The translations under genes were made by a program, and so were the position numbers. DNA of 64,000 nucleotides, from NCBI GenBank assembly GCA_007119965.1, contig SKOR01000037.1:32595-96594 (forward strand), written 5' to 3'. Positions 4,450 to 64,000 of this stretch are shown here, piece by piece. This DNA is from Syntrophomonadaceae bacterium. Lineage in GTDB: Bacteria; Bacillota; Dethiobacteria; DTU022. The notes under the pieces are model-generated. The model did not search any database, was not told the DNA's origin, and worked only from the letters and a program-made list of their open reading frames with translations. How positions within the stretch are numbered: position 1 is the stretch's first letter; each line of letters starts with the position of its first letter.

Positions 4450-5580
4450 TTAGAGCAGGATCGATAACAGGATGCCTGCTGCCACTGCAGAACCGATTAC
4501 ACCGGCCACGTTAGGCCCCATGGCATGCATCAGGAGGTAATTGTTCGGGTTTTCTTCTTTTCCGACTGCCTGGGATACACGGGCTGCCATCGGGACAGCT
4601 GAAACCCCGGCAGAACCGATCAAGGGGTTTATTTTACCTTTTGTTATAACATACAGCACTTTTCCCATCAAAACCCCCGTTGCTGTACCGAATGCAAACG
4701 CACCGAGGCCCAGCAGGATAATCTTGATCGTGTCGGGGGTCAGAAAGTAAGCGGCAGTTGCCTTGCCCCCCACTGTGATACCTAAAAATATAACCACTAT
4801 ATTATTCAGTTCGTTTTGGGCTGCCTTGCTTAACCGGTCAGTCACGCCGGTTTCCCTGATCAGGTTACCGAACATCAGCATACCCAAAAGAGGTAAAGCT
4901 GCCGGCAAAAGGAGCCCAGTAAGGATAATGACAATAATCGGAAATACAATTTTTTCCACTTTTGATACCGGCCTTAACTGCTCCATGACCACCTGGCGTT
5001 CCTGCTTGGTAGTCAGCAGGCGCATGATCGGCGGCTGAATGATCGGAACCAGGGCCATGTATGAATAGGCAGCTATCGCTATTGATCCAAGCAATTCCGG
5101 GGCCAGGCGGCTGGCCAGGAAAATAGCGGTGGGTCCGTCTGCTCCGCCGATAATACCGATTGCCCCGGCTTCCGGGGCAGTGAACCCCAGCAGCATGGCG
5201 CCGAGGAAAGTCAGGAATATCCCAAACTGGGCCGCCGCCCCGAGGAGAATTGTAATCGGATTGGCTATCAGGGGGCCGAAATCGGTCATCGCCCCGACAC
5301 CGAGAAAGATCAGCGGGGGATAAATCCCCAGTTCCAGTCCGAGAGACAGGTAGTAGAGCAAACCACCCGGGTCTCCACCCAGCTCGGGGACCATCAGGCC
5401 GCCAAGGGGAAGGTTTACCAGCAAAACGCCGAAGCCAATAGGAACCAGCAGCAGCGGCTCATATTTTTTGGCAATACCTAAATACAACAGGATACAGGCT
5501 GTGACGATCATGATTACGTCATTAATTTGCAGGTTGTAATAACCTGTCCCCCGGATAAATTCTATCAGCATATCAAACAA
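4450..5580 (-). CDS. Na+-translocating biotin-dependent decarboxylase beta subunit (OadB/GcdB/MmdB family)
   Basis: Polytopic membrane protein of 376 aa. It begins [18 protein letters not shown]..., which is characteristic of OAD_beta family proteins. Confidence 0.85.
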
Positions 5581-5620
5581 CTCAGCTCAACCCCTTTCAG
5601 ATCTCTGGCAGACAGCTAAT

Positions 5621-6052
5621 TTATGACAAAACGATTAAGGGGTCTCCGCTGTTAACAGTATCGCCTTTTTTAACCAGCACTTCTTTTACGGTACCTGCCT
5701 GGGAAGCAGTCAATTCGTTTTCCATTTTCATTGCTTCCAAAACAAGCAGGACATCGCCGTTCTTTATTGTGTCCCCTACGCTGACTTTAACCTCAAGAAT
5801 CGAGCCGGGCATCGGGGCCTTGACATTAAAAGCGCCGCTTCCCCCGGGGGGCGGTGATTTTTTCGGCTGATCGTTTACGGGAGCGGCCGCTTCCGGCCTG
5901 GCGGGTGCAGGACCGGTTTGCGTCCGGGCTGCCGGGTCCCCGGAAGTTCTGTGATCGGGTGTTTCAGGGGAACCCTGTTTATCGTCCTCTTTCATTTCTT
6001 CAACCCGGACAGTGTATGATTGGCCGTCGACTGTTACTTTAAATGTTTTCAC
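5621..6052 (-). CDS. Biotin carboxyl carrier subunit of the decarboxylase (biotinyl domain)
   Basis: C-terminal EAMKM biotinylation motif, a Pro/Ala-rich linker, and an N-terminus MKTFKVTVDGQSYTV like 1.3S/MmdC/GcdC carriers. Confidence 0.85.
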   Translation of the reverse strand: MKTFKVTVDGQSYTVRVEEMKEDDKQGSPETPDHRTSGDPAARTQTGPAPARPEAAAPVNDQPKKSPPPGGSGAFNVKAPMPGSILEVKVSVGDTIKNGDVLLVLEAMKMENELTASQAGTVKEVLVKKGDTVNSGDPLIVLS

Positions 6053-6435
6053 TTTTTATTCCTCCTGGTTTCTTCTAACCTTTTTCTATGATCAAGCAGT
6101 TCTTTTCTGCCGATAATATGCCAGCTTGCTGAACCCGGGCTGCCGGAATGCTGCACTGCCACATTAAACCTGCTTCCGGTCGAAAGAGCGCCGCGTTCAT
6201 GCATATAGCTGTAAACTGCTGCAACAATGGCCGCTGTCCTGCGCCGATCTTCATCTTCAGCCGCTGCTTCTCCTGCTGTATCATGAGCAGGGGCTGTTTC
6301 GGCAGGTTTTAATTGCTCTTTTTTGTAAAATATCCGGTTAAAAACTATTAATATACCGTATAGTCCGGCCAGTGTAAAGATTACTACCAGAAAACCTATA
6401 ACCATAACCTGAAGAGCGAAATCGAAATTCTGCAT
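6049..6435 (-). CDS. OadG-like small membrane subunit of the decarboxylase
   Basis: Single N-terminal TM helix (VMVIGFLVVIFTLAGLYGILIVF) followed by a charged tail. It overlaps the biotin-carrier gene by 4 nt. Confidence 0.55.
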   Translation of the reverse strand: MQNFDFALQVMVIGFLVVIFTLAGLYGILIVFNRIFYKKEQLKPAETAPAHDTAGEAAAEDEDRRRTAAIVAAVYSYMHERGALSTGSRFNVAVQHSGSPGSASWHIIGRKELLDHRKRLEETRRNKK

Positions 6436-8964: not shown

Positions 8965-10515
8965 TTATTTAGCGTAATCAACTGCTCTCGTTTCCCGGAT
9001 CACGGTCACTTTAATCTGCCCGGGGTATTCAAGTTCACCTTCTATTTTTTTAACAATATCTCTTGCTACCTGGATCGAGGTGTAATCATCAATCCGATCC
9101 GGCTTAACCATGATTCTGATTTCGCGACCGGCATGGATAGCGTAAGATTTTTCGACTCCTTCAAAGGAATCAGCGATATTCTCCAGTTTTTCAAGGCGCT
9201 TGATATATGCTTCCAGGGTTTCACGCCGTGCCCCGGGCCTGACTGCCGATATGGCATCAGCAGACTGGATCAATACTGCTTCGAGGGTATGAAAATCCAC
9301 ATCGCCATGGTGGGCTTCAATGGCATTAACAATACCCGGTGTTTCTTTGTATTTCTTAGCCAGTTGTGCACCGATCTCCACATGAGACCCTTCTGTTTCA
9401 TGATCAATCGCCTTACCGATATCATGAAGCAGGCCTGCCCTCTTGGCGAAAGTTACGTCGAGTCCCAGCTCGGCAGCCATAATCCCTGCCAGGTGGGCGA
9501 CTTCGATTGAATGCTGCAATACGTTTTGCCCGTAACTGGTCCTGAATCGCAGTTTCCCCAGTAAAAATACGATATCCGGGTGTAAACCATGAACCCTCGA
9601 TTCAAAGGTAGCCCGCTCGCCTTCTTCCTTGATCTGGGAGTCGACTTCTTTGCGTGTCTTTTCAACTATTTCTTCGATCCTGGCCGGGTGGATCCGCCCG
9701 TCACTGACCAGCTTTTCCAGGGAAAGGCGGGCAACTTCACGCCTGATTGGATCAAAGCCTGAGATAATAACCGCTTCAGGGGTATCATCGATAATTAAAT
9801 CAATACCGGTTAGTGTTTCCAGCGCCCTGATATTGCGGCCTTCACGGCCGATAATGCGGCCTTTCATTTCATCGTTAGGCAGTGAAACAACAGAAACGGT
9901 CGTCTCTGTAACATGGTCGGCTGCGTAACGCTGTATAGCCAGGGTAACAATTTCACGGGCTTTTTTCTCTCCCTCTGCCTTGGCCTGACTCTCCATATCC
10001 TTAACCATGACTATCATTTCGTGTTCGATCTCATTCCTGACCCTCTGCAGCAGAACGTCCTTTGCTTCTTCGGATGTCATACCCGATACTCTTTCCAGTT
10101 CGTTAAGCTGCTGTTGGTGCAGGTTGGTCAATTCTTCCCTGAAAGCCATGTTGTCCTCTTCTTTTTGCTTCAGTTCTTCTTCTTTACGCTCGACAGAATT
10201 CATCTTACGATCGAGACTTTCCTCTTTTTGATCTAATCTCCGCTCCAGCCGCTGCAGTTCTGAGCGCCTCTCTTTGCTTTCTTTTTCGAGATCGCTCCTG
10301 AGACGATGGGCTTCTTCTTTAGCTTCGAGCTGTTTTTCTCTTTTTAAAGAATTTGCTTCCTGGTTTGCTTCTTCGATAATTTTTTTGGCTGCTGCTTCAG
10401 CAGAAGATATCTTCGCTTCAGCAATCATTTTGCGGATAAAATAACCGCCCCCGATACCTAACAGCAAGGCAGCTATAATCATCAGTAAATTTTCCAGCAT
10501 ATAACTCACCTCCAT
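8965..10515 (-). CDS. rny: Ribonuclease Y
   Basis: N-terminal TM helix, coiled-coil region, KH domain ([15 protein letters not shown]) and HD domain (HDIGKA). SD GGAGGTG. Confidence 0.9.
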
Positions 10516-10549
10516 TTCATAGTATTGGCACCATTAGTTATTTGATCTT

Positions 10550-10581
10550 AAAAAAAATAAGCTGTGTCCGGGACACAGCTT
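10550..10581 (-). terminator. Rho-independent terminator after recA-recX
   Basis: Perfect hairpin AAGCTGTGTCC-CGG-GGACACAGCTT, followed on the minus strand by an 8-nt U run. Confidence 0.6.
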
Positions 10582-10778
10582 ATCAGAGAAAAGTCAGATA
10601 AAGGATATAATAATCCCTTTAGCAAAAAGCAAGATTAATTTATGCTCTTTTAATCTATCTTTAGTATCTTTCGATACCAGTGACTTTCTCTTCTCAGTTA
10701 TGACCTGAACCACTGTCACAAAAGTTTTACTTTTACATAATAATTGTAGCCTTTATAAAATATTATGTCAAGAAGAGA

Positions 10779-11255
10779 TTACTCGGAAAGCCCATATTCT
10801 TTAAGAGCTTTGAAAATCAGTCCGTCCTGAAAACCGCGCCTCTTCAGATAAGCCGCCTGGCGGTTCACCCAGCGATGATCAACCTGGCCGTTATAAGGCT
10901 CTCTTCTGGCCAGCAGTTCCCTGATCCTGCATAGATCGTCCTCGGGATCAAACATTTCTGCTGTCAGTTGATCAATTATCTGCCTGTCGACGCCTTTCAC
11001 CTGCAGTTCATAGCGGACTTTTTTCAGGCCATGGCCGCCCGATTTACGGTAACTGATTAAATCCGAAGCAAACTTGCGATCATCAAGATACCCGTATTCC
11101 AGCATTTCATTTAATACGGTATCGGCCACATTAGCATTGAAACCTTTTCGCGCCAAATAATCGGCCACTTCCCTGGCGCTGCGAGCCCTGTAGCCCAGCA
11201 GGCGCAAAACCCTGCTGCGGGCCTTTTTCAGATCCGCCCGGTCATCCAAGTTCAT
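10779..11255 (-). CDS. recX: RecA regulator RecX
   Basis: 158-aa protein with RecX-type helical repeats. It lies immediately downstream of recA. Confidence 0.8.
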   Translation of the reverse strand: MNLDDRADLKKARSRVLRLLGYRARSAREVADYLARKGFNANVADTVLNEMLEYGYLDDRKFASDLISYRKSGGHGLKKVRYELQVKGVDRQIIDQLTAEMFDPEDDLCRIRELLARREPYNGQVDHRWVNRQAAYLKRRGFQDGLIFKALKEYGLSE

Positions 11256-11275
11256 TCAACTCCACGGCAGGCAGG

Positions 11276-12370
11276 TTACTTGTCCTTCTTCCCTGTTTCC
11301 AGGTCCTGATCGCTCTTTTTCCGGACATCGCCGCCGTCAGCAGCCTTTTCTTCGGTTTTAACAGCGGCGACAGGGGCATTATTGATTGGCAGGCCGGCCA
11401 GCTCACGGACTTTTGTTTCAATCTCATTGCGCATGGCAGGGTTTTCCTTTAAATATTCCCTGACATTTTCCCGGCCCTGTCCCAGCCTCTCCTCACCGTA
11501 TGAGTACCAGGCACCGCTCTTGTTTATCACGTTATGCTCCAGGCCGAGGTCTATCAGCGACCCTTCCGCCGAAACCCCCTTGCCGTATAATATGTCGAAT
11601 TCGGCGATTTTAAAAGGTGGCGCCACCTTGTTTTTAACCACTTTAACCCGCGTCCTGTTGCCGATAATCTGATCGGAACCGATTTTAAGCGATTCAATTC
11701 TTCTGACATCCATTCTGACTGACGAATAAAATTTTAAGGCCCGGCCACCGGGAGTAACTTCCGGGTTACCGAACATAACCCCAACTTTTTCTCTGATCTG
11801 GTTAATAAATATGGCGCTGGTCTTCGATTTGCTGATCACACCCGATAATTTACGCAGGGCCTGCGACATCAGCCTGGCCTGCAGGCCAACATGGGCATCG
11901 CCCATTTCGCCTTCAATTTCTGCTCTCGGCACTAAAGCTGCCACCGAGTCGATTACCAGGACATCGATTGCATTGCTGCGCACCAAAGCTTCGGCAATCT
12001 CCAGGGCCTGCTCACCCGTGTCAGGCTGGGATACAAGCAGTTCATCAAGATTGACTCCAAGATTGGTGGCATACTGCGGGTCGAGAGCATGCTCTGCATC
12101 GATAAAGGCTGCATAGCCGCCTCTTTTTTGTGCTTCAGCTATAATATGCAAGGCAACAGTGGTTTTACCGGATGATTCGGGGCCGAATATTTCGATTACC
12201 CTGCCCCTGGGCACCCCTCCCACTCCCAGGGCGACATCCAAAACGAGGCTGCCTGTTGGGATGGCTGCAATTTCCACCCTGGCATCCGAGCCAAGCTTCA
12301 TGACCGAACCCTTGCCGAATTGCTTTTCGATTTGTACTAATGCTGCTTCCAGTGCTTTTTCTTTTTCCAT
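11276..12370 (-). CDS. recA: Recombinase RecA
   Basis: Walker [10 protein letters not shown] and canonical RecA blocks ([25 protein letters not shown]). Confidence 0.95.
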
Positions 12371-12437
12371 CTGTCTTTCCTCCTTATACTGGTCCTATTG
12401 ATTTCATATTTCGTTTTCCAATCATAATATCCTGCAA

Positions 12438-12998
12438 TTATATAAATGATTTCCTGTCGATTACCGTGTGCTGCGCACCCTGCGGAAGCAGTTTACTCTG
12501 GAACAGGGTAATCTCTTTTACATCAACCGGGGAGCTTTCGAAAGAGCTTTCGTCTTCAAGGAATTTCCTGACCATGTTAGCCGGCAGCGGTTTGCGCAGC
12601 CTGCCAATTGTCAGGTGCGGCCGGTAAAGCCGGTTTTTCCGTTCAAAACCGGATCCGGCCATATTTTCTTCGAGGCTGTCCGCAAGCATAGTAACCTGCT
12701 TTTCACCTTCTTTTAAACCGGTCCAGAGCACCCGCGCTTTTTGGGGGTTCGGAAAAACACCGCATCCCCCAAACCTGAGGGTAAAGGGCTTCAGCTCTTT
12801 AGAGGCTATTTCCATCGCTTCCATGACCGGGGCGACTTTATCTTCAGCGCATTCGCCTAAAAACTTCAGGGTCAGGTGCATGTTTTCTGCCCGCACCCAG
12901 CTTACCCCGGCAAATCTTTGCTTTGCCCTTTTTTGCAGTTCAAGAATTTCCAGTTTCTTTCGGCCCGCCAGTTCAATCGCGATAAACAGCCGTAACAA
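12438..12998 (-). CDS. thpR: RNA 2',3'-cyclic phosphodiesterase (2H phosphoesterase, ThpR/LigT)
   Basis: Two H-x-T-x motifs (HLTLKFLG and HLTIGRL). Confidence 0.8.
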   Translation of the reverse strand: MLRLFIAIELAGRKKLEILELQKRAKQRFAGVSWVRAENMHLTLKFLGECAEDKVAPVMEAMEIASKELKPFTLRFGGCGVFPNPQKARVLWTGLKEGEKQVTMLADSLEENMAGSGFERKNRLYRPHLTIGRLRKPLPANMVRKFLEDESSFESSPVDVKEITLFQSKLLPQGAQHTVIDRKSFI

Positions 12999-13047
12999 GG
13001 CAATCCCTCCTCCCTGCCTGCCAATAAACAGTCTGCATTGGCGCTGC

Positions 13048-14280
13048 CTACAATCGCAGGAGGACTTTCCTCAGCATATCGAGGGCAATTTGAGCTGACC
13101 GCTCTTTTACTGCCCTCCTGCTGCCACCTAAATTAAGCTGCCTGCTTTCAGGGCCGCCGGGACCGTCAACAGCGGCATAAACCAGGCCGGCCGGGTTTCC
13201 GGCACGGTCGCTGTCGGGGCCGGCAACCCCGGTTATCCCGACGGCAAAGTCGGTCCGGAAAAGTTTTTTGGCCCCTTCAGCCATTGCCAGGGCCGTCGCT
13301 GCGCTGGTTTCCCCTTCCCGCTCCAACAGTTCCCGGCTGACTCCGAGCAGTTCGGTTTTCAGCTCTTTATTGTAGGCAATTAATCCGCCCCGGTAAAATT
13401 TTGAGCTGCCGGGTATGTCGGTAATCAAATCGGACAGAAGGCCGCCGCTGCATGATTCGGCCAGCGACAGGGTCAACCCCCCGGCAGTTAGCATCGCTGC
13501 CGCCAAACCGGCAAGGGTTTCGTCATCACTGCCGTAGATATGATCGCCAAGCACCGCACGCAGGCGTTTTTCCGCCTCTTCGATGGAACGTTCCGCCGCT
13601 TCGCGTTCTCCACTGCCCTTGATCTGCAAATCCACCTCGTAGCCCCGGGCTACATAAGATATCTGGGGAAGATCCCACTTTCCGACTGCTTTAATCTTTT
13701 CCTCCAGCATCGATTCACCGATGCCGATACATTTCAGGGTTTTCACTGCAGTCAGCCTGGTCTTGTTGTTCTCGGCCAGGAACGGGAGAACCTGTTCATC
13801 AAACATGGCCTGAAGTTCATGGGGCGGGCCGGGCAGCATGATAATATATTTGCCTTCTTTCTCCACAATAGCCCCGGGAGCGGTTCCCCTCCTGTTTTCC
13901 AGCAGGATGCTTCCTTCCAGCGCCATGGCCTGCTTGCGGTTATTGCCGGGCATCCTGAATCCGCGGCGGCTGAAGAACTGCTCCATTTTATCAAACCACT
14001 GTTGATTGAAAACCAGGGTCAGGCCCAGGATAGAAGCAACCGCTTCCCTGGTCAAATCGTCATCGGTTGGGCCTAAACCGCCGGTTAATATAACCAGGCT
14101 GCTTTCTTCCAGGGCTCTTTCCAGGGCACCCCTGATCGCTTCTTCATGATCGGCTACAACGCATGTTTCACGGACTGATATTCCCGTTGACCAGAGCCGC
14201 CTGGCCAGGAAGCCGGCATTGCTGTTCTCAATCAGGCCGGTCAGCAATTCGCTGCCGACGCAAATCAGATCTGCCTGCAA
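13048..14280 (-). CDS. cinA: Competence/damage-inducible protein CinA (MoCF-binding N-domain plus CinA C-domain)
   Basis: ADLICVGSELLTG N-terminus and a C-terminal CinA domain. TTG start with GGAGGTG SD. cinA-recA synteny. Confidence 0.85.
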   Translation of the reverse strand: MQADLICVGSELLTGLIENSNAGFLARRLWSTGISVRETCVVADHEEAIRGALERALEESSLVILTGGLGPTDDDLTREAVASILGLTLVFNQQWFDKMEQFFSRRGFRMPGNNRKQAMALEGSILLENRRGTAPGAIVEKEGKYIIMLPGPPHELQAMFDEQVLPFLAENNKTRLTAVKTLKCIGIGESMLEEKIKAVGKWDLPQISYVARGYEVDLQIKGSGEREAAERSIEEAEKRLRAVLGDHIYGSDDETLAGLAAAMLTAGGLTLSLAESCSGGLLSDLITDIPGSSKFYRGGLIAYNKELKTELLGVSRELLEREGETSAATALAMAEGAKKLFRTDFAVGITGVAGPDSDRAGNPAGLVYAAVDGPGGPESRQLNLGGSRRAVKERSAQIALDMLRKVLLRL

Positions 14281-55747: not shown

Positions 55748-56950
55748 TTAAAAGCGCACCGCCCCCTCAGAGGCCATCTGCTCAATGTCATTGGGGTTGT
55801 AACCGAGCGAGTGCAGGATTTCCCGGGTATGCTCACCGTGGCGCGGCGGAGGCAGACGGACCTGCCCTGCACAGCCGGAAAACAACAGCGGGAAACCGGG
55901 CATAATCTCGGTTTCACCGGCGCTGTTTACTGATTTGATCCAGTAGCGGCCCTCACGGCCGGTGGGGTAACCGACAGCCTCGGCCAGGCTTAGAACAGGT
56001 TCGCAGCAGGCATCAAGACCGGAAAAAAGGGTTTCCCACTGCTCCCTGGTTTTTTCTTTAAATAAAGCCTGTACTTCCCTGATTAACGCTTCCCGCCCTT
56101 CCTGTTCAAATTGAAGCGCGGTCCACTGATTTTTTCCGACCGCTTCACAGAACCTCTCCCAGAAAACAGGCTCAAGCGCTCCGAGACTCATATGTTTGCC
56201 GTCGGCAGTTTCGTAAATATTATAGCAGGCGTAAGCCCCGGTAATCGGGCCGCTCCCGCGCCTGGCCATCTCTTCAGAACTGTTCATGGCCGATGCGGCC
56301 ATGGTCAGCCAGGGAAGCAAACCCCTGGTCATCGAGACATCGACATGGCTGCCTTTGCCGTCCCGCCCTCTCCGGAATAAGGCGATCAGAATACCCTGCA
56401 GGGCCATCATCGCCCCCCCGGCGATATCAGCAACCTGGATCGCAGGCATTTGCGGCGAACCGCCTTCTTCGGCACTCAGATCGAGCAGCCCTGACAGGGC
56501 GGTGTAGTTTAGATCATGGCCGGCCCTGTCCCGGTAAGGGCCAGTTTGGCCGTAACCGGTAATTGAGGCATAAACCAGGCCCCCGTTAAGCCGGCTCAGT
56601 TCGCTGTAGCCCAGCCCCAGGCGCTCCATAACCCCCGGCCTGAAACCTTCAACCAGGACATCGGCTCTGCCGGCCAGCTTCTGGACTGCCGTACGGCCCT
56701 GTCCAGTCTTCAGGTTCACGGCCAGGCTTTTCTTGTTGCGGTTCAGCTGGCGGAAAAAAGAACCGCTGCCTTCAAAAAAACGGCCGACGAACCTTGTCGG
56801 GTCGCCGGCTTCAGTATCTTCAATTTTTACTATTTCAGCCCCGTAATCCCCCATCAGCATAGTGCAGAGCGGACCCGGCAGCAGGCGGGTCAGGTCCAGG
56901 ACCGTTAAGCCCTGCAGGGGCAGGCTTTTTTCGCTGTGTTCTTCTTTCAT
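55748..56950 (-). CDS. Family III CoA-transferase (CaiB/BaiF family)
   Basis: N-terminal LQGLTVLDLTRLLPGPLCTMLMGDYGAEIVKIE motif, typical of CoA_transf_3. Size 400 aa. The start overlaps the stop of the upstream flavoprotein gene. Confidence 0.85.
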   Translation of the reverse strand: MKEEHSEKSLPLQGLTVLDLTRLLPGPLCTMLMGDYGAEIVKIEDTEAGDPTRFVGRFFEGSGSFFRQLNRNKKSLAVNLKTGQGRTAVQKLAGRADVLVEGFRPGVMERLGLGYSELSRLNGGLVYASITGYGQTGPYRDRAGHDLNYTALSGLLDLSAEEGGSPQMPAIQVADIAGGAMMALQGILIALFRRGRDGKGSHVDVSMTRGLLPWLTMAASAMNSSEEMARRGSGPITGAYACYNIYETADGKHMSLGALEPVFWERFCEAVGKNQWTALQFEQEGREALIREVQALFKEKTREQWETLFSGLDACCEPVLSLAEAVGYPTGREGRYWIKSVNSAGETEIMPGFPLLFSGCAGQVRLPPPRHGEHTREILHSLGYNPNDIEQMASEGAVRF

Positions 56951-58554
56951 TACCGGTGTGTATAATGCGGCAGTAAAATCGGCCCTACCCGGTCTTCGGC
57001 CGCATTCGTTTCTTCTAATTCCCTGTGGTATTTTTCCACGTGCTCCAGGGTGAGCTTTCCGGGAACAGGAAGATCCTTGCTTTTCGCCGCTGCGTCTCTT
57101 CCGGCCCTGCGGCCAAAAACGATAATATCGAGCAGAGAATTACCCATCAGGCGGTTGGTGCCGTGAATCCCGCCTGCTGCCTCACCGGCAACATAGAGAT
57201 TTTCAACAGTACTGTGACCGCTGTCATCAATCAGCAGCCCGCCGTTCTGGTAATGCAGGGTCGGGTAAATCAGCATCGGCTCCTTGCGAATATCAACACC
57301 GAAGCGCTGGAACTGGCGCAGCATAGCCGGCAGCTGGCGCTCGATGGTCCCTTCACCGTGAGTCAGCTCGAGAATTGGCGAATCAAGCCAGACCGCGGTA
57401 ATTCCCGTCGGCAGCGGCACACCTAACCCGCGTTCTTCACACTCGCGGATAATCGCAGACGATTCCACATCCCTCGTTTCGAGGTGGTAGACAAACTGCT
57501 CGCCGTTGATATTAAGCGGCGTAGCGCCGAGGCCGCGCGTCTTTTCAGTAACCAGGAGCCCCAGGAGCTGGGGCGGGAAAGCGCCGCCTGTCGGGTGATA
57601 CTGGATAGAGTCGGCATAAATAGTTTTCGCCCCGGCCCGGTATCCCATCACCAGGCCGTCCGCGGTGGCCCCGTAGTGGTTGCTGGTCGGAAAACCGCGG
57701 TAATGAAGCCTTCCCGATCCTCCGGTGGCGATGATTACCGTTTTAGCCCGGGCCACCATGTACTGTTCTGTTTCGATATTGTAGAGGACTGCCCCGGCGG
57801 CACGGCCCTGCTCATCAAGGAGAACCTCAACCGCCGCACAGAATTCAACAACGGTAATATCCTTGTTATAAACTTCATCCCGCAGGGTCCTCATAATTTC
57901 AGCGCCGGTATAATCGCGGGCAGCATGCATCCGTTTCCGCGATGTCCCCCCGCCGTGAATTGTAACCATCCTGCCGTCTTCTTTTTTATCAAACATGGTA
58001 CCCATGTCTTCCAGCCACTTGATCACCAGCGGTGCGTCCATAACCAGGGCGCGGGCCAGTTCGGGAACGTTCTCCAGCCTTCCCCCGCCCATCACATCAA
58101 GGTAGTGGATTGCCGGAGTATCGTTTTCCTTGTCGGCCGCCTGGATACCGCCCTGGGCCATCATCGTATTGGCGTCTCCAAAGCGCAGTTTGGTGGCTAT
58201 CAGCACATCGGCCCCTGCTGCGTGGGCATCGAGCGCTGCCGCAGCCCCGGCTCCTCCTCCGCCGATTATCAGGACGTCGACATCGTAATCCGGCTCTGCC
58301 GTGAGGTCCAGTTCAACATCGCGCAGGCGGCTCCACGATTCAAATACATCTGCCATCTCGTTGGGCAGGCGCGATCCCTTGTTGACGCCTACTTTTAGTT
58401 CGCGAAACCCGTCCTCGATATAATCGGGATGAAACTTTTGCAGCACGTCGCGGCGTTCTTCCTGGGTCATCCGCGGAAAATTGACACCGACCCGGGAGGG
58501 CCTGGTCTCTTCTACTTTCTTCATAAGCTCTCTTAACTGCGGTGTGTAAGTCAA
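56950..58554 (-). CDS. Succinate dehydrogenase/fumarate reductase flavoprotein-like subunit (FAD_binding_2) with non-covalent FAD and an N-terminal extension
   Basis: GxGxAG dinucleotide motif (LIIGGGGAGAAAA). AQGGI block lacking the His used for covalent FAD. Active-site HPTGG, HYQNGG, and AGEAAGGIHGTNRLMGNSLLD...FGRRAG. An extra roughly 85 aa at the N-terminus. Confidence 0.8.
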   Translation of the reverse strand: MTYTPQLRELMKKVEETRPSRVGVNFPRMTQEERRDVLQKFHPDYIEDGFRELKVGVNKGSRLPNEMADVFESWSRLRDVELDLTAEPDYDVDVLIIGGGGAGAAAALDAHAAGADVLIATKLRFGDANTMMAQGGIQAADKENDTPAIHYLDVMGGGRLENVPELARALVMDAPLVIKWLEDMGTMFDKKEDGRMVTIHGGGTSRKRMHAARDYTGAEIMRTLRDEVYNKDITVVEFCAAVEVLLDEQGRAAGAVLYNIETEQYMVARAKTVIIATGGSGRLHYRGFPTSNHYGATADGLVMGYRAGAKTIYADSIQYHPTGGAFPPQLLGLLVTEKTRGLGATPLNINGEQFVYHLETRDVESSAIIRECEERGLGVPLPTGITAVWLDSPILELTHGEGTIERQLPAMLRQFQRFGVDIRKEPMLIYPTLHYQNGGLLIDDSGHSTVENLYVAGEAAGGIHGTNRLMGNSLLDIIVFGRRAGRDAAAKSKDLPVPGKLTLEHVEKYHRELEETNAAEDRVGPILLPHYTHR

Positions 58555-58578
58555 CTTAATTGCTCCTCCTCTCCAGGT

Positions 58579-59262
58579 CTACTTTTCAATTTCACGATCA
58601 TTGTACATCTGCTGCAGCGTCTCATCTTCTGCTGTAACGAGTTCGTCAATTTCAGCGTCCATCTCACCGTCTTTAATTGCCCTGGCCCTTTCGACCAGGA
58701 ACGGATCGGGTTTGGCGATGTAACGGCTGAAAAGGCGCCGGGCAGTCAGGCCGGCATTGTAATGGACTATATTGGCCGGGCAGCGTGATACACAGAGCCC
58801 GCACATCAGGCAGTCAAAAGAAATATCGGCTGCCTTTTCAAAATCGCCGCGCTGGCAGTAAGCAATGTACTGCATGACATCGATATCCTGGGGGCAGACC
58901 TTGTTACAGGAACTGCAGCCCAGGCACTTGTACACTTCAGGATAAAGCTGGGCAAAGTGAGCCATCGTAGGCTTAATATCTTCAAGGTTGAACTTTGCTT
59001 TACGGCCCGGGAAAAAGGGAATCTGGGCCAGGTACATACCATCTTCCACCTTGGTCTGGCAGGCCAGGCCGACCTGGAGTTCGTAATCGTTGGCCATCCT
59101 GAAAACGGTGGCGCAGGCGCCGCAGAAGCCGGCCCGGCAGCCGCAGCCGCGGGTTAACTGGTAACCGGCGTATTCCATTGCATCCAGGATGGTCAGCGTT
59201 TCCGGGACGGTATAACGCTTACCCATTAAATATATGTCAACCATTTTTATTTCGTCTGTCAT
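58579..59262 (-). CDS. Succinate dehydrogenase/fumarate reductase iron-sulfur subunit-like protein (2Fe-2S plus two Cys clusters)
   Basis: CGCRAGFCGAC plant-type 2Fe-2S motif, then CLGCSSCNKVCP and CLMCGLCVSRCP cluster motifs. Size 227 aa. No membrane-anchor gene is adjacent. Confidence 0.8.
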   Translation of the reverse strand: MTDEIKMVDIYLMGKRYTVPETLTILDAMEYAGYQLTRGCGCRAGFCGACATVFRMANDYELQVGLACQTKVEDGMYLAQIPFFPGRKAKFNLEDIKPTMAHFAQLYPEVYKCLGCSSCNKVCPQDIDVMQYIAYCQRGDFEKAADISFDCLMCGLCVSRCPANIVHYNAGLTARRLFSRYIAKPDPFLVERARAIKDGEMDAEIDELVTAEDETLQQMYNDREIEK

Positions 59263-59276
59263 ATTATCCTCCTCAA

Positions 59277-60611
59277 TTACTCGGCAGGCGGAGCCGGGAT
59301 AAAGCCCTGATCCATCGCCGCCTTGGTCTGATCCTGGGCTCTCTTGATCGTTTCTTCGGCTTTCTTGTATATTTCTTCGCGGCTAAGTTCAATCCTGGCC
59401 AGTCCCTCTTCAATGGCCTTCATGGCTGTAGCTGTAGCTACCCGCGGAAATACTTCCCACATATCCATCGTCGGCAGGATCATTTCAGGATCCATGCCGC
59501 CCCTGGGCGCGCAGGCGGCCAGTTCTTCAGCTGCAGCGATGCACATCGTATCGGAAATCCCGGTAGCCTGGACGTCTAAAACACCGCGGAAAATTGCGGG
59601 GAAACCGAGCGAGTTATTAACCTGGTTCGGGAAATCGGAGCGGCCGGTGGAGACAATCTTCGCCCCTGCATCAATCGCTTCCCAGGGCCAGATTTCCGGA
59701 ATGGGGTTGGCGCAGGCAAAGACAATTGCGTCTTTAGCCATACTCTGAATCCACTCTTTTTTAATTGTATCCGGGCCGGGCTTGGAAAGGCCGATTAAAA
59801 CATCAGCACCCTTGCAGGCGTCTGCTGCGTCAGTGGCCAGCCCTTCACCGTTAGTACTCTGGGCCAGTTCCCATTTCACCGGGTGCTCTTCCTTAAGCTC
59901 GGTGCGGCCCTTATGCAGGATGCCCTTGCTGTCTACCATAACAACTTTCTTTAAATCTGCCCCTGCCACGCCAAGCAGGCGGACGGTACAGATATTGGCA
60001 GCCCCGGCGCCGAGCAGGACAATTTTGGCATCCTCCATCTTCTTGCCGACAATTTTCAGGGCATTGATCAGGCCGGCCACGGTAACACAGGCGGTACCCT
60101 GCTGATCATCATGCCAGATCGGAATGTGGCATTCTTCTCTCAGGCGGTCGAGGACATAAAAACACTTCGGGCTGGCAATATCCTCAAGATTTACACCGCC
60201 AAAGCAGGGCTGCATCATTTTAACAAACTTAATCAGCTCATCGGGATCTTTCGTGTCAACGCAAACCGGAAAAGCATCGACGCCGCCTAAATACTTGAAA
60301 AGCAGCGCTTTGCCTTCCATTACCGGCATACTTGCTTCGGGCCCGATATCGCCGAGGCCGAGAACCCTGGTGCCGTCAGAGACAACGGCCAGGAAATTGC
60401 CTTTATTGGTATACTCATAAACAAGTTCTTTATTATCGGCGATAGCCTTGCACGGCTCGGCAACGCCCGGAGTATACCAGATCGCAAAATCTCCTATACC
60501 GCGCACACAGCACTTTAAGTTTACTTCAATTTTACCCTTGTAAAATGGGTGCAGCCGCATTGCATCCTGGGCCGGCTTTTTCGCCTTGGCCAGTAACTCA
60601 TCTTTATTCAT
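59277..60611 (-). CDS. NAD(P)-dependent malic enzyme (short bacterial form)
   Basis: Malic enzyme N-terminal and NAD-binding domains (LAVVSDGTRVLGLGDIG, VLLGAGAANI). The start is ambiguous: ATG at 60611 (MNKDEL) has an AGGA SD, and alternative in-frame ATGs exist up to 60638. Confidence 0.85.
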   Translation of the reverse strand: MNKDELLAKAKKPAQDAMRLHPFYKGKIEVNLKCCVRGIGDFAIWYTPGVAEPCKAIADNKELVYEYTNKGNFLAVVSDGTRVLGLGDIGPEASMPVMEGKALLFKYLGGVDAFPVCVDTKDPDELIKFVKMMQPCFGGVNLEDIASPKCFYVLDRLREECHIPIWHDDQQGTACVTVAGLINALKIVGKKMEDAKIVLLGAGAANICTVRLLGVAGADLKKVVMVDSKGILHKGRTELKEEHPVKWELAQSTNGEGLATDAADACKGADVLIGLSKPGPDTIKKEWIQSMAKDAIVFACANPIPEIWPWEAIDAGAKIVSTGRSDFPNQVNNSLGFPAIFRGVLDVQATGISDTMCIAAAEELAACAPRGGMDPEMILPTMDMWEVFPRVATATAMKAIEEGLARIELSREEIYKKAEETIKRAQDQTKAAMDQGFIPAPPAE

Positions 60612-60728
60612 TGTCATTATCCTGTCCCTACTTTCCATTAAAAATTTATTTAAACCGGCTCTCTGCCTGTTTCTGACCGGCAGCCGCAGAGATCAGACTT
60701 GCTGCCCTGTCTGCGGCCATCATAAAAA

Positions 60729-61280
60729 CTACCTGGCGTATTCTTTGGCTCCTTCGGCATAAAGATCGTTGCCATATGCGTCATTGACCACTGTTGCCGG
60801 GAAATCTTCCACTTCCAGGCGGCGAATTGCCTCCGGCCCCAGCTCAGGGTAAGCTACAACCTCGCTCTTCTTGATTTTTTTGGAGAGCAGTGCGCCGGCG
60901 CCGCCCACTGCGGCCAGGTACAGGCCCTTGTGCTTAACGAGGGCGTCTTTTACAACCTGGCTGCGAAGCCCTTTGCCGATACATGCTTTCATGCCTTTTT
61001 CCAGCATCTGGGGGGTGTAAGCATCCATCCGGCCGCTTGTAGTCGGACCTGCCGAACCGATGGCCTGACCCGGTTTTTCCGGGGTCGGACCGACATAAAA
61101 TATAAACTGCCCCGTCAGGTCGATGGGCAGTTCTTCGCCTTTATCCATTAACTCAACCAACTTTTTATGGGCGGCATCTCTTGCCGTGTAAATAACTCCG
61201 CTGATCAGGACATTATCTCCCGCTTTCAGGGCCATTACATCTTCATCAGTCAGGGGAGCCTTAATTTTTTTTGTTTCCAT
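60729..61280 (-). CDS. fumB: Class I (Fe-S) fumarate hydratase beta subunit
   Basis: 183-aa Fumerase_C-type sequence (LISGVIYTARDAAHKKL, GPTTSGRMD). SD GAGGAGG. Confidence 0.85.
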   Translation of the reverse strand: METKKIKAPLTDEDVMALKAGDNVLISGVIYTARDAAHKKLVELMDKGEELPIDLTGQFIFYVGPTPEKPGQAIGSAGPTTSGRMDAYTPQMLEKGMKACIGKGLRSQVVKDALVKHKGLYLAAVGGAGALLSKKIKKSEVVAYPELGPEAIRRLEVEDFPATVVNDAYGNDLYAEGAKEYAR

Positions 61281-61307: not shown

Positions 61308-62153
61308 TTAAATAATTTTTTCAAGGTGCCGGCAGGCGTGGCAGTTGATATTAACCGCTGCTGCCATGCTGGCAATATGGGACGGGTAATCTTCGATGTG
61401 CACCGCCAGGGCGAAATTCCTTCCGCCGAAGCCCTGCGGCCCCACCCCGAGATCGTTGATTTTATCCTTGATTCTTTTTTCCAGGTCGGCAAACTTACTG
61501 TTCGGGTTGCTTTCGCCCACCTTACGGAAAAGCGCTTTTTTAGCCTGTACAGCAACCTTGTCAAAAGTTCCCCCGATGCCCACACCAACTACAATTGGCG
61601 GGCAGGGGTTTGGCCCGGCCGCCTTGACATGGTTTACGACGAAATCAATAAAACCGGCTTCGCCATCCGAAGGCTTGAGCATCTTTACTGCACTCATGTT
61701 CTCACTTCCGCCGCCTTTCGGCGCAAACGAAATCTTTACCTTATCACCGGGCACAATATCGGTATAAATTACCGCAGGGGTATTATCGCCGGTATTTTTG
61801 CGTTCATAAAGCGGATCGCTGACTATTGACTTGCGCAGGTATCCTTCCTCATAACCCCGTTTTACTCCGGCATTGATCGCTTCTTCCAGCGATCCGCCGG
61901 TTAAGTGTACTTCCTGGCCCCACTCGACGAAAAACACGGCAAATCCCGTATCCTGGCAGATGGGGATTTGTTCGTCGCGGGCAATTTCAACATTCTCAAT
62001 CAGCTGTTTTAAAACTTCTTTTCCGGTTGGCGATTCTTCCGTCTCCAGGGCGTCTTTCAAGGCACTGAATACATCTTCACCCAGGTAAATATTCGCCTGT
62101 TCGCACATCTCGGCCACATGATCAGAAATAGTTGACGCGGCAAGTTCCCGCAA
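61308..62153 (-). CDS. fumA: Class I (Fe-S) fumarate hydratase alpha subunit
   Basis: Fe-S hydro-lyase alpha-type sequence with Cys ligands (PICQDTG, NPCPP). A probable TTG start at 62153 is preceded by AGGGAGGTG. The ORF-track start at 62204 would translate through the SD. Confidence 0.8.
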   Translation of the reverse strand: MRELAASTISDHVAEMCEQANIYLGEDVFSALKDALETEESPTGKEVLKQLIENVEIARDEQIPICQDTGFAVFFVEWGQEVHLTGGSLEEAINAGVKRGYEEGYLRKSIVSDPLYERKNTGDNTPAVIYTDIVPGDKVKISFAPKGGGSENMSAVKMLKPSDGEAGFIDFVVNHVKAAGPNPCPPIVVGVGIGGTFDKVAVQAKKALFRKVGESNPNSKFADLEKRIKDKINDLGVGPQGFGGRNFALAVHIEDYPSHIASMAAAVNINCHACRHLEKII

Positions 62154-62566
62154 AATCAGACACCTCCCTGTTAGTCTTAAGTACCGGGCTTCAACATTAC
62201 CCAATATAATTTTATTTTCTGCTTTTTGCTTAAAATTCCTGCCGCGAATTATAATATTTACTATAATTCTAAAATTTATTTTCTAACTTGATGACATAAC
62301 GTCATTTATTTCTATATTTTTAGATCGGCTCCCGCCTGCGAAGGGATCCGGATCTTCATTCAGCTGTAAGCAAAGCTGCCCCCTGCCTTGCGGAGGAGCA
62401 GCTATAACCGGCAGGCGATTGTATCGGGCAGGCGGCAAAAACCCTGGCGCAGGCGCTTCCATTGCCCGTAAGCGCAGAGAGATAAGAAACCCTGCGCTTA
62501 CAGATGCCGGAAACCTTCAGGTTGGCTTGAGAGACAGATCTTATCCATAGTCAGGACCTGTGCTGA

Positions 62567-63460
62567 TTATTTAGAGGCCTCTATCCTCTTAAGCAGGACT
62601 TCCCAGTCATGATCCACTTCTTCCTGCAGGGCTTCGATCCTTACATCCTCCATCTGTTTAAACCGGCGCTGTCCGCTTAAATACTCTTTTAACGGCAGCC
62701 TCTTTCCTTCCGGCTGGCAGGTCATTTTCCAGGAGACTCCGTTTATAATCTCGTAGAGGGGGAAAAACCCTGTCGCTACGGCCTGCCTGGAAAGGTGAAT
62801 CGTATCCGAAGATTCGGTTCCCCAGCCCGGCGGGCAGGGCGATAAGATATGGATAAAGCGGAACCCCCTGATTTCCCGGGCCTTTTTAAGCTTCCTTTCC
62901 ATATCTTCCGGAAAAGCAACAGTAGCCGTAGCGGCGTAAGGGATGCTGTGGGCAGCCATAATCTGCATGATATCTTTTTTCTGCCCCTCTTTAAACAGCG
63001 GATAGGGTGCGGTAGCAGTCCGCGCCCCGAAAGGCGTGGCTGAACTGGTCTGCATACCTGTATTCATGTAGGCTTCATTATCGTAGCAAACAAACATGTA
63101 GTCTTCGTTGCGCTGGGCAGCGCCGGACAGGGCCTGCAGGCCGATATCGAAAGTACCGCCGTCACCGGCCAAAACGACCACGGTCGTGTCATACTGGCCC
63201 TTCGCGTTAAGGCCCCGCCTGACACCGCTGCCGACTGAACCGGCACTGGGGAAAGGACAGTGCAGGATTGGGCACTTCAGGGCTGTTAAGGGCGGCATCC
63301 CGGTTATAATGCTCCAGCACGAAGCGGTTAAAACCAGCGCTAAATCTGGCCCGAGCGCCCTGGTCAGGTAGCGGACCGCCAGGGCTGCACCGCAGCCGGG
63401 GCAGGCGTTGTGCCCGGCATAAAGCATTTCCGACTCATGGTTCATTATGTCAGTTTTCAC
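62567..63460 (-). CDS. porB: 2-oxoacid:ferredoxin oxidoreductase beta subunit (TPP-binding; PorB/KorB type)
   Basis: TPP-binding GDGG block, N-terminal CPGCG, size 297 aa typical of 4-subunit PFOR/KOR. Confidence 0.85.
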   Translation of the reverse strand: MKTDIMNHESEMLYAGHNACPGCGAALAVRYLTRALGPDLALVLTASCWSIITGMPPLTALKCPILHCPFPSAGSVGSGVRRGLNAKGQYDTTVVVLAGDGGTFDIGLQALSGAAQRNEDYMFVCYDNEAYMNTGMQTSSATPFGARTATAPYPLFKEGQKKDIMQIMAAHSIPYAATATVAFPEDMERKLKKAREIRGFRFIHILSPCPPGWGTESSDTIHLSRQAVATGFFPLYEIINGVSWKMTCQPEGKRLPLKEYLSGQRRFKQMEDVRIEALQEEVDHDWEVLLKRIEASK

Positions 63461-64000
63461 CTTAAATCAACTCCCCACTTTTGTTCGACATGCCCTTCAG
63501 CTTTCTCTTCCCTGACAATTCGTTCCAGCATTTCAATAGTCAGGTCGATCCCGCCGGCCAGGATTATATCCTGCACATCGGGCTGATTATCCATCCCGTA
63601 GAGGGCCGAACGCAGCTCCTGGGCAAATATGCCGCCCATGCCTGTCGAACAGTTGCGGTCGATCACTATAACTTTCTCCACCCCGTGTTCTTCCAGGGCG
63701 CTGCACAGCTCCTCGCGGGGGAAGGGGCGAAACATTCTCAGCTGCAGCAGGCCTGTATCCTGCATCTTCGGCAGCGCCCAGCGAACAGTTTCAGCTGTTG
63801 CGCCGGCGGCCAGGATAACGGTTTTGGCCCCGTCCGGGATAACCGGATCAATCGCGCCGTAGCTGCGTCCGAAGGTTTCCTGGAAGCGGCTGTTAATCGC
63901 TTTGAAGGACTGCGGCGCCAGTTTCATGGCCTCGTGGCGGCCCCTGATCAGTTCGATCTGGTTGTCCCCTGTGGTCAGGCCGTGCAGGTTTGCCGGCGCA
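63457..64000 (-). CDS. porA: 2-oxoacid:ferredoxin oxidoreductase alpha subunit, C-terminal part (gene continues beyond the window)
   Basis: Alpha-subunit C-terminal domain sequence. The frame stays open without a stop to position 64000. It overlaps the porB start by 4 nt. Confidence 0.75.
   Translation of the reverse strand, partial: APANLHGLTTGDNQIELIRGRHEAMKLAPQSFKAINSRFQETFGRSYGAIDPVIPDGAKTVILAAGATAETVRWALPKMQDTGLLQLRMFRPFPREELCSALEEHGVEKVIVIDRNCSTGMGGIFAQELRSALYGMDNQPDVQDIILAGGIDLTIEMLERIVREEKAEGHVEQKWGVDLR

Follow-up and report, generated by a model that had tools for sequence, protein, structure and literature searches.

The stretch of DNA considered here, called the window throughout, comprises 64,000 nucleotides (nt) of contig SKOR01000037.1 from a Syntrophomonadaceae bacterium. 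On its minus strand lie two adjacent genes whose products, a flavoprotein and an iron-sulphur (Fe-S) protein, resemble the catalytic subunits of succinate dehydrogenase (Sdh) and fumarate reductase (Frd). A preliminary description had presented them as an anchor-less pair with non-covalently bound flavin adenine dinucleotide (FAD) and an N-terminal extension on the flavoprotein, and had linked them to succinate oxidation in syntrophs. What was observed there is confirmed, whilst the interpretation is partly supported. Both open reading frames (ORFs) had been correctly delimited, and the pair has the following features:

58579-59262, minus strand: frdB-like Fe-S subunit of 227 amino acids (aa), with Pfam Fer2/Fer2_4 and Fer4 dicluster matches
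56950-58554, minus strand: frdA-like flavoprotein of 534 aa, with a PF00890 match over residues 93-474
58291-58554, minus strand: family-specific N-terminal extension of the flavoprotein, residues 1 to about 88
58168-58170, minus strand: codon of Asn129, which by alignment occupies the site of the 8-alpha-N3-histidyl-FAD histidine

The flavoprotein contains the active-site blocks originally named, HPTGG, HYQNGG and AGEAAGGIHGTNRLMGNSLLD, together with NTMMAQGG. It was aligned with SdhA, FrdA and NadB of Escherichia coli, taken from the annotated K-12 record, and its residues His320, Thr336/Glu337, Arg340, Arg361, His434 and Arg468 match those that bind the dicarboxylate and transfer the proton in these enzymes. 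The same alignment places Asn129 (ANTM) opposite the FAD-linking histidines, His45 of SdhA and His44 of FrdA (both SHTV), where NadB has a serine. No histidine aligns at this position, as had been claimed, and a phmmer alignment from the PDB with Sdh1 of M. smegmatis agrees (AHTV against ANTM). Asn129 and the catalytic residues are invariant in an alignment of 125 family members. Because histidine gives way to asparagine at the flavinylation site, FAD is predicted to be bound non-covalently.

The preliminary description overlooked the loss of the C-terminal domain. The FAD-binding and capping domains occupy residues ~92-474, after which a 60-aa tail stands in for the usual C-terminal domain; there is no PF02910 match in the flavoprotein, and the domain of about 110-120 aa that SdhA, FrdA and NadB share is absent from the alignment. 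The best NCBIfam match is TfrA of thiol:fumarate reductase (NF004900), at 329.9 bits against a cut-off of 718 and covering profile positions 6-427 of 546. Models for NadB also fall below their cut-offs (the best at 258 bits against 639; TIGR00551 at 254 against 453), as does TIGR01813, which covers flavocytochrome c3 and the single-polypeptide soluble type (194.7 bits against 285). No nad genes lie near the pair.

At the other end of the protein, the dinucleotide-binding (Rossmann) fold starts at about residue 92, as compared with about residue 9 in E. coli, which gives an N-terminal extension of the ~85 aa first estimated. Helices are predicted at residues 5-21, 31-41 and 65-71, along with short strands. 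Neither the extension nor the C-terminal tail has a Pfam match; several positions of the extension are invariant among the 125 aligned sequences. Searched alone, it gave 416 matches among 1.84 billion representative proteins, and in 150 of the 150 matches listed it lies at, or within about 40 residues of, the N-terminus. Structure prediction had been suggested as a way to examine it. An AlphaFold2 model built from the 125-sequence alignment has a predicted local distance difference test score (pLDDT) of 87 and a predicted TM-score of 0.90, with pLDDT 85-96 in the extension; with only 13 sequences aligned, the model had been of no use (pLDDT 57). The best Foldseek match is E. coli FrdA (1kf6_A; TMq 0.69 over about 450 columns), and every solved SdhA, FrdA or NadB structure leaves the extension unaligned. 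That the extension might be the C-terminal domain relocated by circular permutation was considered and is rejected at the level of sequence, as hhalign comparisons with the C-domains of E. coli SdhA, FrdA and NadB gave probabilities below 1%.

The Fe-S subunit has all 12 cysteines required for the 2Fe-2S centre and two further clusters that the preliminary description assigned to it. Cys42, Cys47, Cys50 and Cys68 form the 2Fe-2S pattern, and two complete CxxCxxCxxxCP motifs follow at 113-123 (Cys113/116/119/123) and 151-161 (Cys151/154/157/161); all 12 are invariant across 60 sequences. Alignment with SdhB and FrdB shows that the third cluster, a three-cysteine [3Fe-4S] site in E. coli, has a fourth ligand position here, Cys154, a difference that had also escaped notice, so that one [2Fe-2S] and two [4Fe-4S] clusters are predicted. 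The loop between clusters is about 30 aa shorter than in E. coli SdhB and FrdB, and a four-cysteine site with a short loop is what would be expected of an enzyme that does not face quinone. A C-terminal tail of about 60 aa is absent from the E. coli proteins. The 227-aa protein has no CCG domain (PF02754); its best NCBIfam match, with TfrB, covers the N-terminal part of that model and scores 51 bits (cut-off 385), and dhsB scores 37.8 bits against 88.

The search for an anchor or an electron partner covered the 64-kb window and 4.5 kb of the public source contig beyond its end (locus L084). As the preliminary description had noted, no gene for a CCG-domain or cytochrome-b-like protein lies within 6 kb of the pair, and the absence of anchor and CCG genes holds for the whole of the inspected sequence. 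The sole membrane protein near the pair is an AI-2E-family transporter encoded on the opposite strand. HdrA, HdrB, HdrC, MvhD, FlxA, FlxB and FlxC have no tblastn match anywhere in the window, the 4.5 kb beyond it is free of Hdr/Flx genes, and L084 contains none up to 10 kb upstream of the pair. Nor is there a ferredoxin gene in the window: read in six frames, it contains no CxxCxxCxxxCP motif outside FrdB. Seven related loci whose flanks are long enough (L002, L003, L005-L008 and L013) likewise have no CCG, Hdr or Flx gene within 10 kb of the pair, and an SdhC/D-type gene never adjoins the pair in 71 related loci. Judged from these sequences, the enzyme lacks an anchor and almost certainly does not couple to quinone.

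The features described above had been put forward as special to this locus. Instead they are invariant traits of a family that has already been flagged in the literature (PMC7282089, PMC6315080). When one genome per species was scanned by pattern and confirmed loci were counted, the family was found in at least 593 species genomes, and it is abundant in succinate-producing fermenters of the gut and rumen. Full-length relatives of the flavoprotein, at 59-94% identity, occur in Bacillota, Cetobacterium, Synergistaceae, Anaerolineae and Planctomycetota, the closest of them carrying the label Syntrophomonadaceae. The identity of 59-70% maintained across Bacillota, Fusobacteriota (Cetobacterium), Synergistota, Chloroflexota and Planctomycetota is unusually high for such distant lineages and suggests that constraint is very strong, that the module has been transferred horizontally as a whole, or both.

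Gene contexts were compared by calling ORFs in the 80 best loci, of which the 71 with an intact ORF were counted; neighbours were labelled by BLAST against Sporomusa rhizae proteins identified by Pfam (CCG, Fer4_17, HdrA-like FAD/Fer4, FlpD, Fer4, Fer4_22 and FAD_6/NAD_1/DHODB-FeS). By ORF call, the Fe-S partner gene adjoins the flavoprotein gene in 59 of the 71. In about 50, HdrA, MvhD or Flx genes stand immediately upstream of the pair, in the arrangement hdrB-hdrC-hdrA-mvhD-flxC-flxB-flxA-frdB-frdA. Four have HdrCB only (hdrC-hdrB-frdB-frdA), with sucCD after the pair in L014 and L016. The two genes hdrC-hdrB directly precede the pair in L014, L016, L032, L041 and L052; neither hdrA nor flx genes were seen in L014, L016 and L052, and further Hdr/Flx genes lie near the pair in L032 and L041. 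From their gene order, these loci look like a bacterial version of thiol:fumarate reductase split into four subunits. A third arrangement, that of the window, L001-L008 and L013, has no Hdr or Flx gene within 10 kb, fumarase and malic enzyme genes upstream, and downstream a coenzyme A (CoA)-transferase gene or, in Dethiobacter, one for acetyl-CoA synthetase; the CoA-transferase gene of the window also follows the pair in L001 and L003-L006. An Asp-Al_Ex transporter of the AAE family, a putative succinate exporter, is encoded downstream of the pair in 29 of the 71 loci, fumarase adjoins it in 18, and SucC or SucCD in three. In locus L063 (about 10000-13300) the flavoprotein gene is present twice in tandem, and in the Anaerolineae locus L077 several copies of hdrA and mvhD flank the pair on both sides, with very large ORFs of 1075 and 1561 aa.

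The pair of the window is 59-70% identical over its full length to Hdr/Flx-linked pairs, and forms one tight clade with those of Sporomusa rhizae, Cetobacterium, Ruminococcus flavefaciens and Christensenellaceae. In a neighbour-joining tree the Hdr-less loci, which belong to soda-lake Syntrophomonadaceae and Dethiobacter, are a single clade nested inside the family; thus the linkage seems to have been lost secondarily. Where the Hdr/Flx-linked majority is at least 95% invariant, this clade keeps 196 of 205 positions in FrdA (96%) and 67 of 75 in FrdB (89%). Relaxed constraint was looked for in the Hdr-less clade and none was found, a result that fits an unlinked partner and intrinsic constraint alike, and nothing in this conservation suggests a changed mechanism.

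In the window the pair is part of a row of closely spaced genes, bounded upstream by a long gap:

62205-62566, minus strand: 363-nt AT-rich intergenic region, in which TATAAT-like stretches can be read
61308-62204, minus strand: class I fumarate hydratase alpha (PF05681; NF004885 at 400 bits, above cut-off)
60729-61280, minus strand: class I fumarate hydratase beta (PF05683; NF005310 at 273 bits, above cut-off)
59277-60638, minus strand: NAD(P)-dependent malic enzyme (PF00390, PF03949), starting at 60617 in the public gene call
55748-56950, minus strand: family III CoA-transferase of 400 aa (PF02515)

The true start of the fumarase alpha gene is likely 62153, as in the public gene call. From fumarase alpha through fumarase beta, malic enzyme and frdB to frdA, the spacers measure 27, 90, 14 and 24 nt, and the ATG of the CoA-transferase gene overlaps the flavoprotein stop codon (TAATG). 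The flavoprotein gene starts with TTG and has a GGAGG ribosome-binding site 9 nt upstream. With spacings of -1 to 90 nt, no convincing minus-strand terminator was found between the genes of the row, and a promoter-like site precedes nth, the next gene after it. The tight spacing, the stop/start overlap and the strong ribosome-binding site argue for a single operon of fumarase, malic enzyme, frdBA and CoA-transferase genes, of which the 363-nt gap is probably the promoter region. The best solved relative of the CoA-transferase is succinate-hydroxymethylglutarate CoA-transferase (9br6), a succinyl-CoA user, and by this likeness the enzyme probably handles succinate or succinyl-CoA.

The same gap parts the row from a Por/Vor-type 2-oxoacid:ferredoxin oxidoreductase cluster, which occupies 62567-64000 of the window and runs on beyond its end (positions 1-5988 of L084); the apparent truncation of porA is simply the window boundary. 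Between its gamma and alpha subunit genes the cluster encodes a 514-aa Fer4_20 and Pyr_redox_2 protein (GltD/NfnB-like). It is preceded by genes for a Leu/Val-type dehydrogenase and a sigma-54 activator, and adjoins the frd row also in L002, L003 and L005-L007. Possibly it serves as an NAD(P)-linked system for branched-chain 2-oxoacids. A 2-oxoglutarate synthase, which would have made an operon leading from pyruvate to 2-oxoglutarate, was rejected because the oxidoreductase scores as Por/Vor and not as Kor, and because it forms a separate cluster, with the dehydrogenase and the activator, behind the gap.

At 4450-6435 on the minus strand lie genes for the beta subunit of a Na+-translocating decarboxylase (376 aa; TIGR01109, 515 bits), a biotin carrier of 143 aa, whose second-best match is the methylmalonyl-CoA decarboxylase gamma subunit MmdC, and a small gamma subunit; a gene for the carboxyltransferase alpha subunit does not adjoin them. 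They could connect to succinate or propionate metabolism. About 58 ORFs were picked as genes in the window, all but four on the minus strand, and one of these four, antisense to porA where the window ends, is an artefact. Plus-strand GC skew is negative throughout which, with the strong strand bias of the genes, places the window on one replichore. The region is one of core housekeeping genes (recA, rny, ftsK, pnp, infB, nusA, dnaE, pfk and pyk, by N-terminal sequence) rather than a mobile element.

The reading that we hold to be likely, with some room for doubt, is that the pair is a cytoplasmic two-subunit fumarate reductase, a member of a highly conserved enzyme family of anaerobes that is related to thiol:fumarate reductase, and that it acts in a reductive C4 branch. 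Fumarate would bind at the canonical SdhA/FrdA active site and be reduced by the non-covalent FAD, which electrons would reach through the [2Fe-2S] and the two [4Fe-4S] clusters of the small subunit. Fumarate and succinate are suggested as the substrate pair by the conserved active site and by the recurrent neighbours, namely fumarase, succinyl-CoA synthetase, the AAE exporter and the CoA-transferase. Presumably transcribed together with the class I fumarase, the malic enzyme and the family III CoA-transferase, the enzyme would serve a branch leading from pyruvate/malate through fumarate and succinate to succinyl-CoA, and in the organism of the window it most likely does no more than complete this branch.

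In most relatives the electrons would come from the adjacent HdrABC-MvhD-FlxABC module, with the oxidation of NADH coupled to the reduction of both fumarate and ferredoxin. In the clade of the window this module is unlinked, so that the donor would be either ferredoxin itself, reduced and acting at an exposed distal [4Fe-4S] cluster, or a module of Hdr/Flx or HdrBC type encoded elsewhere. The potential of ferredoxin is about -450 mV. The standard potentials (E0') of fumarate/succinate and NAD are +33 mV and -320 mV, respectively (PMC5861303). The drop from NADH to fumarate could pay for the reduction of ferredoxin, but the reverse, confurcating reaction would have a mean potential of about -210 mV, too positive to reduce NAD+ and hence unfavourable. 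As regards direction, a covalent FAD bond has been called ‘absolutely required’ for succinate oxidation, and homologues that bind FAD non-covalently reduce fumarate only (PMC9557727). Since the FAD of this enzyme is predicted not to be linked to histidine, it would work only towards succinate.

These considerations bear directly on the role proposed in the preliminary description, that of a soluble succinate dehydrogenase for syntrophic succinate oxidation, in which a low-potential or confurcating partner takes the place of quinone as electron acceptor. Malic enzyme, fumarase, CoA-transferase and the upstream Por/Vor genes could equally provide oxidative steps of propionate or succinate metabolism, and the closest relatives are labelled Syntrophomonadaceae. 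However, each of the 125 aligned family members has asparagine for the flavinylation histidine, the estimated confurcation potential would not suffice for NAD+, and the family is common in succinate-producing fermenters, where it is paired with putative succinate exporters. Succinate oxidation by this enzyme is therefore highly improbable. Another part of the earlier interpretation, coupling to a thiol, ferredoxin or bifurcating partner in place of quinone, is borne out in so far as orthologues lie downstream of hdrBCA-mvhD-flxCBA or of hdrCB.

A thiol donor is the basis of a further explanation, in which an HdrB/HdrC-like CCG protein, its gene lying elsewhere in the genome, would join the pair to oxidise a dithiol, either a protein or a compound of low molecular weight, and so make up a split thiol:fumarate reductase. 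Among the curated families TfrA and TfrB score best, hdrC-hdrB lies directly upstream of the pair in the five loci named above, and almost none of the positions invariant in Hdr-linked enzymes have changed in the Hdr-less clade. There is also a parallel in the soluble, irreversible, NADH-dependent FrdABCDE of Hydrogenobacter thermophilus, an enzyme of five subunits (Miura et al. 2008, via PMC13147460); some Aquificota, according to the latter source, have A and B subunits without close homologues of C, D and E. Against this, a CCG or HdrC gene is found neither in the window nor within 10 kb of the pair in the seven related loci. To our knowledge, no thiol cofactor has been described for these bacteria. 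A split enzyme of this kind is unlikely, if the most credible of the alternatives.

As the fumarate reductase label is based on homology, the substrate might be a different dicarboxylate, unsaturated or amino, for example mesaconate, itaconate or L-aspartate: L-aspartate oxidase and several enoate reductases, urocanate reductase among them, are FAD_binding_2 enzymes too, mesaconate, itaconate or glutarate are frequent substrates of family III CoA-transferases, and all scores with curated models lie far below their cut-offs. Yet the residues with which FrdA/SdhA bind fumarate and transfer the proton are conserved without exception, genes for fumarase, succinyl-CoA synthetase or the AAE transporter recur beside the pair across phyla, and there is no nadA or nadC in the context, which leaves this idea as improbable as succinate oxidation. 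An ordinary membrane-bound complex II, its anchor encoded elsewhere, has in its favour that only part of the genome is visible; it is the least probable explanation of all, given that no SdhC/D-type gene stands beside the pair in the 71 loci, that the covalent-FAD histidine and the C-terminal domain are absent, and that a four-cysteine site replaces the quinone-proximal [3Fe-4S] cluster next to an inter-cluster loop shortened by some 30 residues.

Several points count against a fumarate reductase of the reductive C4 branch. The sequence in view was 64 kb plus 4.5 kb of a 199-kb contig, so that the absence of a partner means the absence of a linked partner. The literature searched gave no instance of a family enzyme having been purified or assayed, and substrate and direction hence rest on homology and gene context. 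The context by itself leaves direction unfixed, since malic enzyme, fumarase and a succinyl-CoA-type transferase are also steps of the oxidative methylmalonyl-CoA route. All NCBIfam matches of the CoA-transferase are below cut-off, which makes its substrate uncertain.

A more speculative proposal, which we consider possible though rather doubtful, is that FrdBA of the Hdr-less clade is a self-sufficient, uncharacterised ferredoxin:fumarate oxidoreductase, in which the N-terminal domain would replace the C-terminal domain structurally and the distal [4Fe-4S] end would act as a plug-in port. Such a port would take free ferredoxin or, in other lineages, the bifurcating Hdr/Flx module. If so, the pair would be a minimal, easily expressed core for testing the bifurcating fumarate reductase proposed for quinone-free Clostridia.

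Regardless of the donor, the family bears on the question of how quinone-free succinate producers reduce fumarate, with or without energy conservation. Numerous strict anaerobes that lack quinones and cytochromes, abundant Clostridia of gut and rumen among them, make succinate, and this family looks like the main candidate for the fumarate reduction involved. In the window the catalytic core occurs in a naturally Hdr-less form, as two genes with a strong ribosome-binding site. The pair is no solution to the problem that syntrophs face in oxidizing succinate; it belongs to a widespread, as yet uncharacterised family that others had already noticed, and is an Hdr-less variant within it.

Set beside the known systems, the pair shares with FrdABCD and SdhCDAB of E. 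coli the FAD-binding and capping fold, the catalytic residues and the order of the Fe-S motifs. These enzymes differ in having the FAD-linking histidine, the C-terminal domain, a [3Fe-4S] cluster, the longer loop and a membrane anchor, and in lacking the N-terminal extension. Thus, of the hallmarks of complex II the active-site residues are present in the window, whereas the FAD histidine, PF02910, the [3Fe-4S] site and a linked anchor are not. NadB and flavocytochrome c3 fumarate reductase likewise lack the histidine and are one-way fumarate reducers, but they have no Fe-S partner, and NadB retains its C-terminal domain. The dedicated Fe-S subunit gene 24 nt upstream of the flavoprotein gene sets the window enzyme apart from the single-polypeptide type.

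TfrAB of Methanothermobacter is reportedly soluble and independent of quinone, with a [2Fe-2S] and two [4Fe-4S] clusters in its Fe-S subunit. The window enzyme resembles it in all three respects by prediction, and TfrA and TfrB give the best curated matches to the pair. Unlike TfrB, the small subunit of the window has no C-terminal CCG half (HdrB-like and thiol-oxidising), and unlike TfrA, the flavoprotein lacks profile positions 428-546 and carries an additional N-terminal domain. FrdABCDE of H. thermophilus, likened here by description and not by sequence, is also cytoplasmic and combines a complex-II-like A subunit with extra soluble subunits; it differs in serving an autotrophic reductive tricarboxylic acid (rTCA) cycle. 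Genes resembling tfrAB are interspersed with flxABCD-hdrABC in the rTCA clusters of tubeworm symbionts (PMC6315080), and associations of HdrA with SdhA in Firmicutes have been seen in network data.

The closest counterpart is the ‘succinate operon’ of Pseudoclostridium thermosuccinogenes, which comprises fumarase, Flx-Hdr, fumarate reductase and a putative succinate transporter, and responds as a unit to CO2 limitation with a change of about 4-fold (PMC7282089). The enzyme, which the authors regard as unique, has been proposed to couple the formation of succinate to the reduction of ferredoxin, in a 2019 preprint by Koendjbiharie and van Kranenburg as it is cited in PMC7282089; the system itself is a genomic and transcriptomic proposal, without biochemistry. 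CDQ83_RS03320-25 likewise encode an anchor-less pair of Fe-S protein and flavoprotein beside fumarase, and, in a comparison by layout only, orthologues of the window pair occupy the described order of hdr-flx, frdBA and putative succinate transporter. The window has the orthologous catalytic pair and not the adjacent hdr/flx genes; there, the places of Flx-Hdr and the transporter are taken by malic enzyme and the CoA-transferase.

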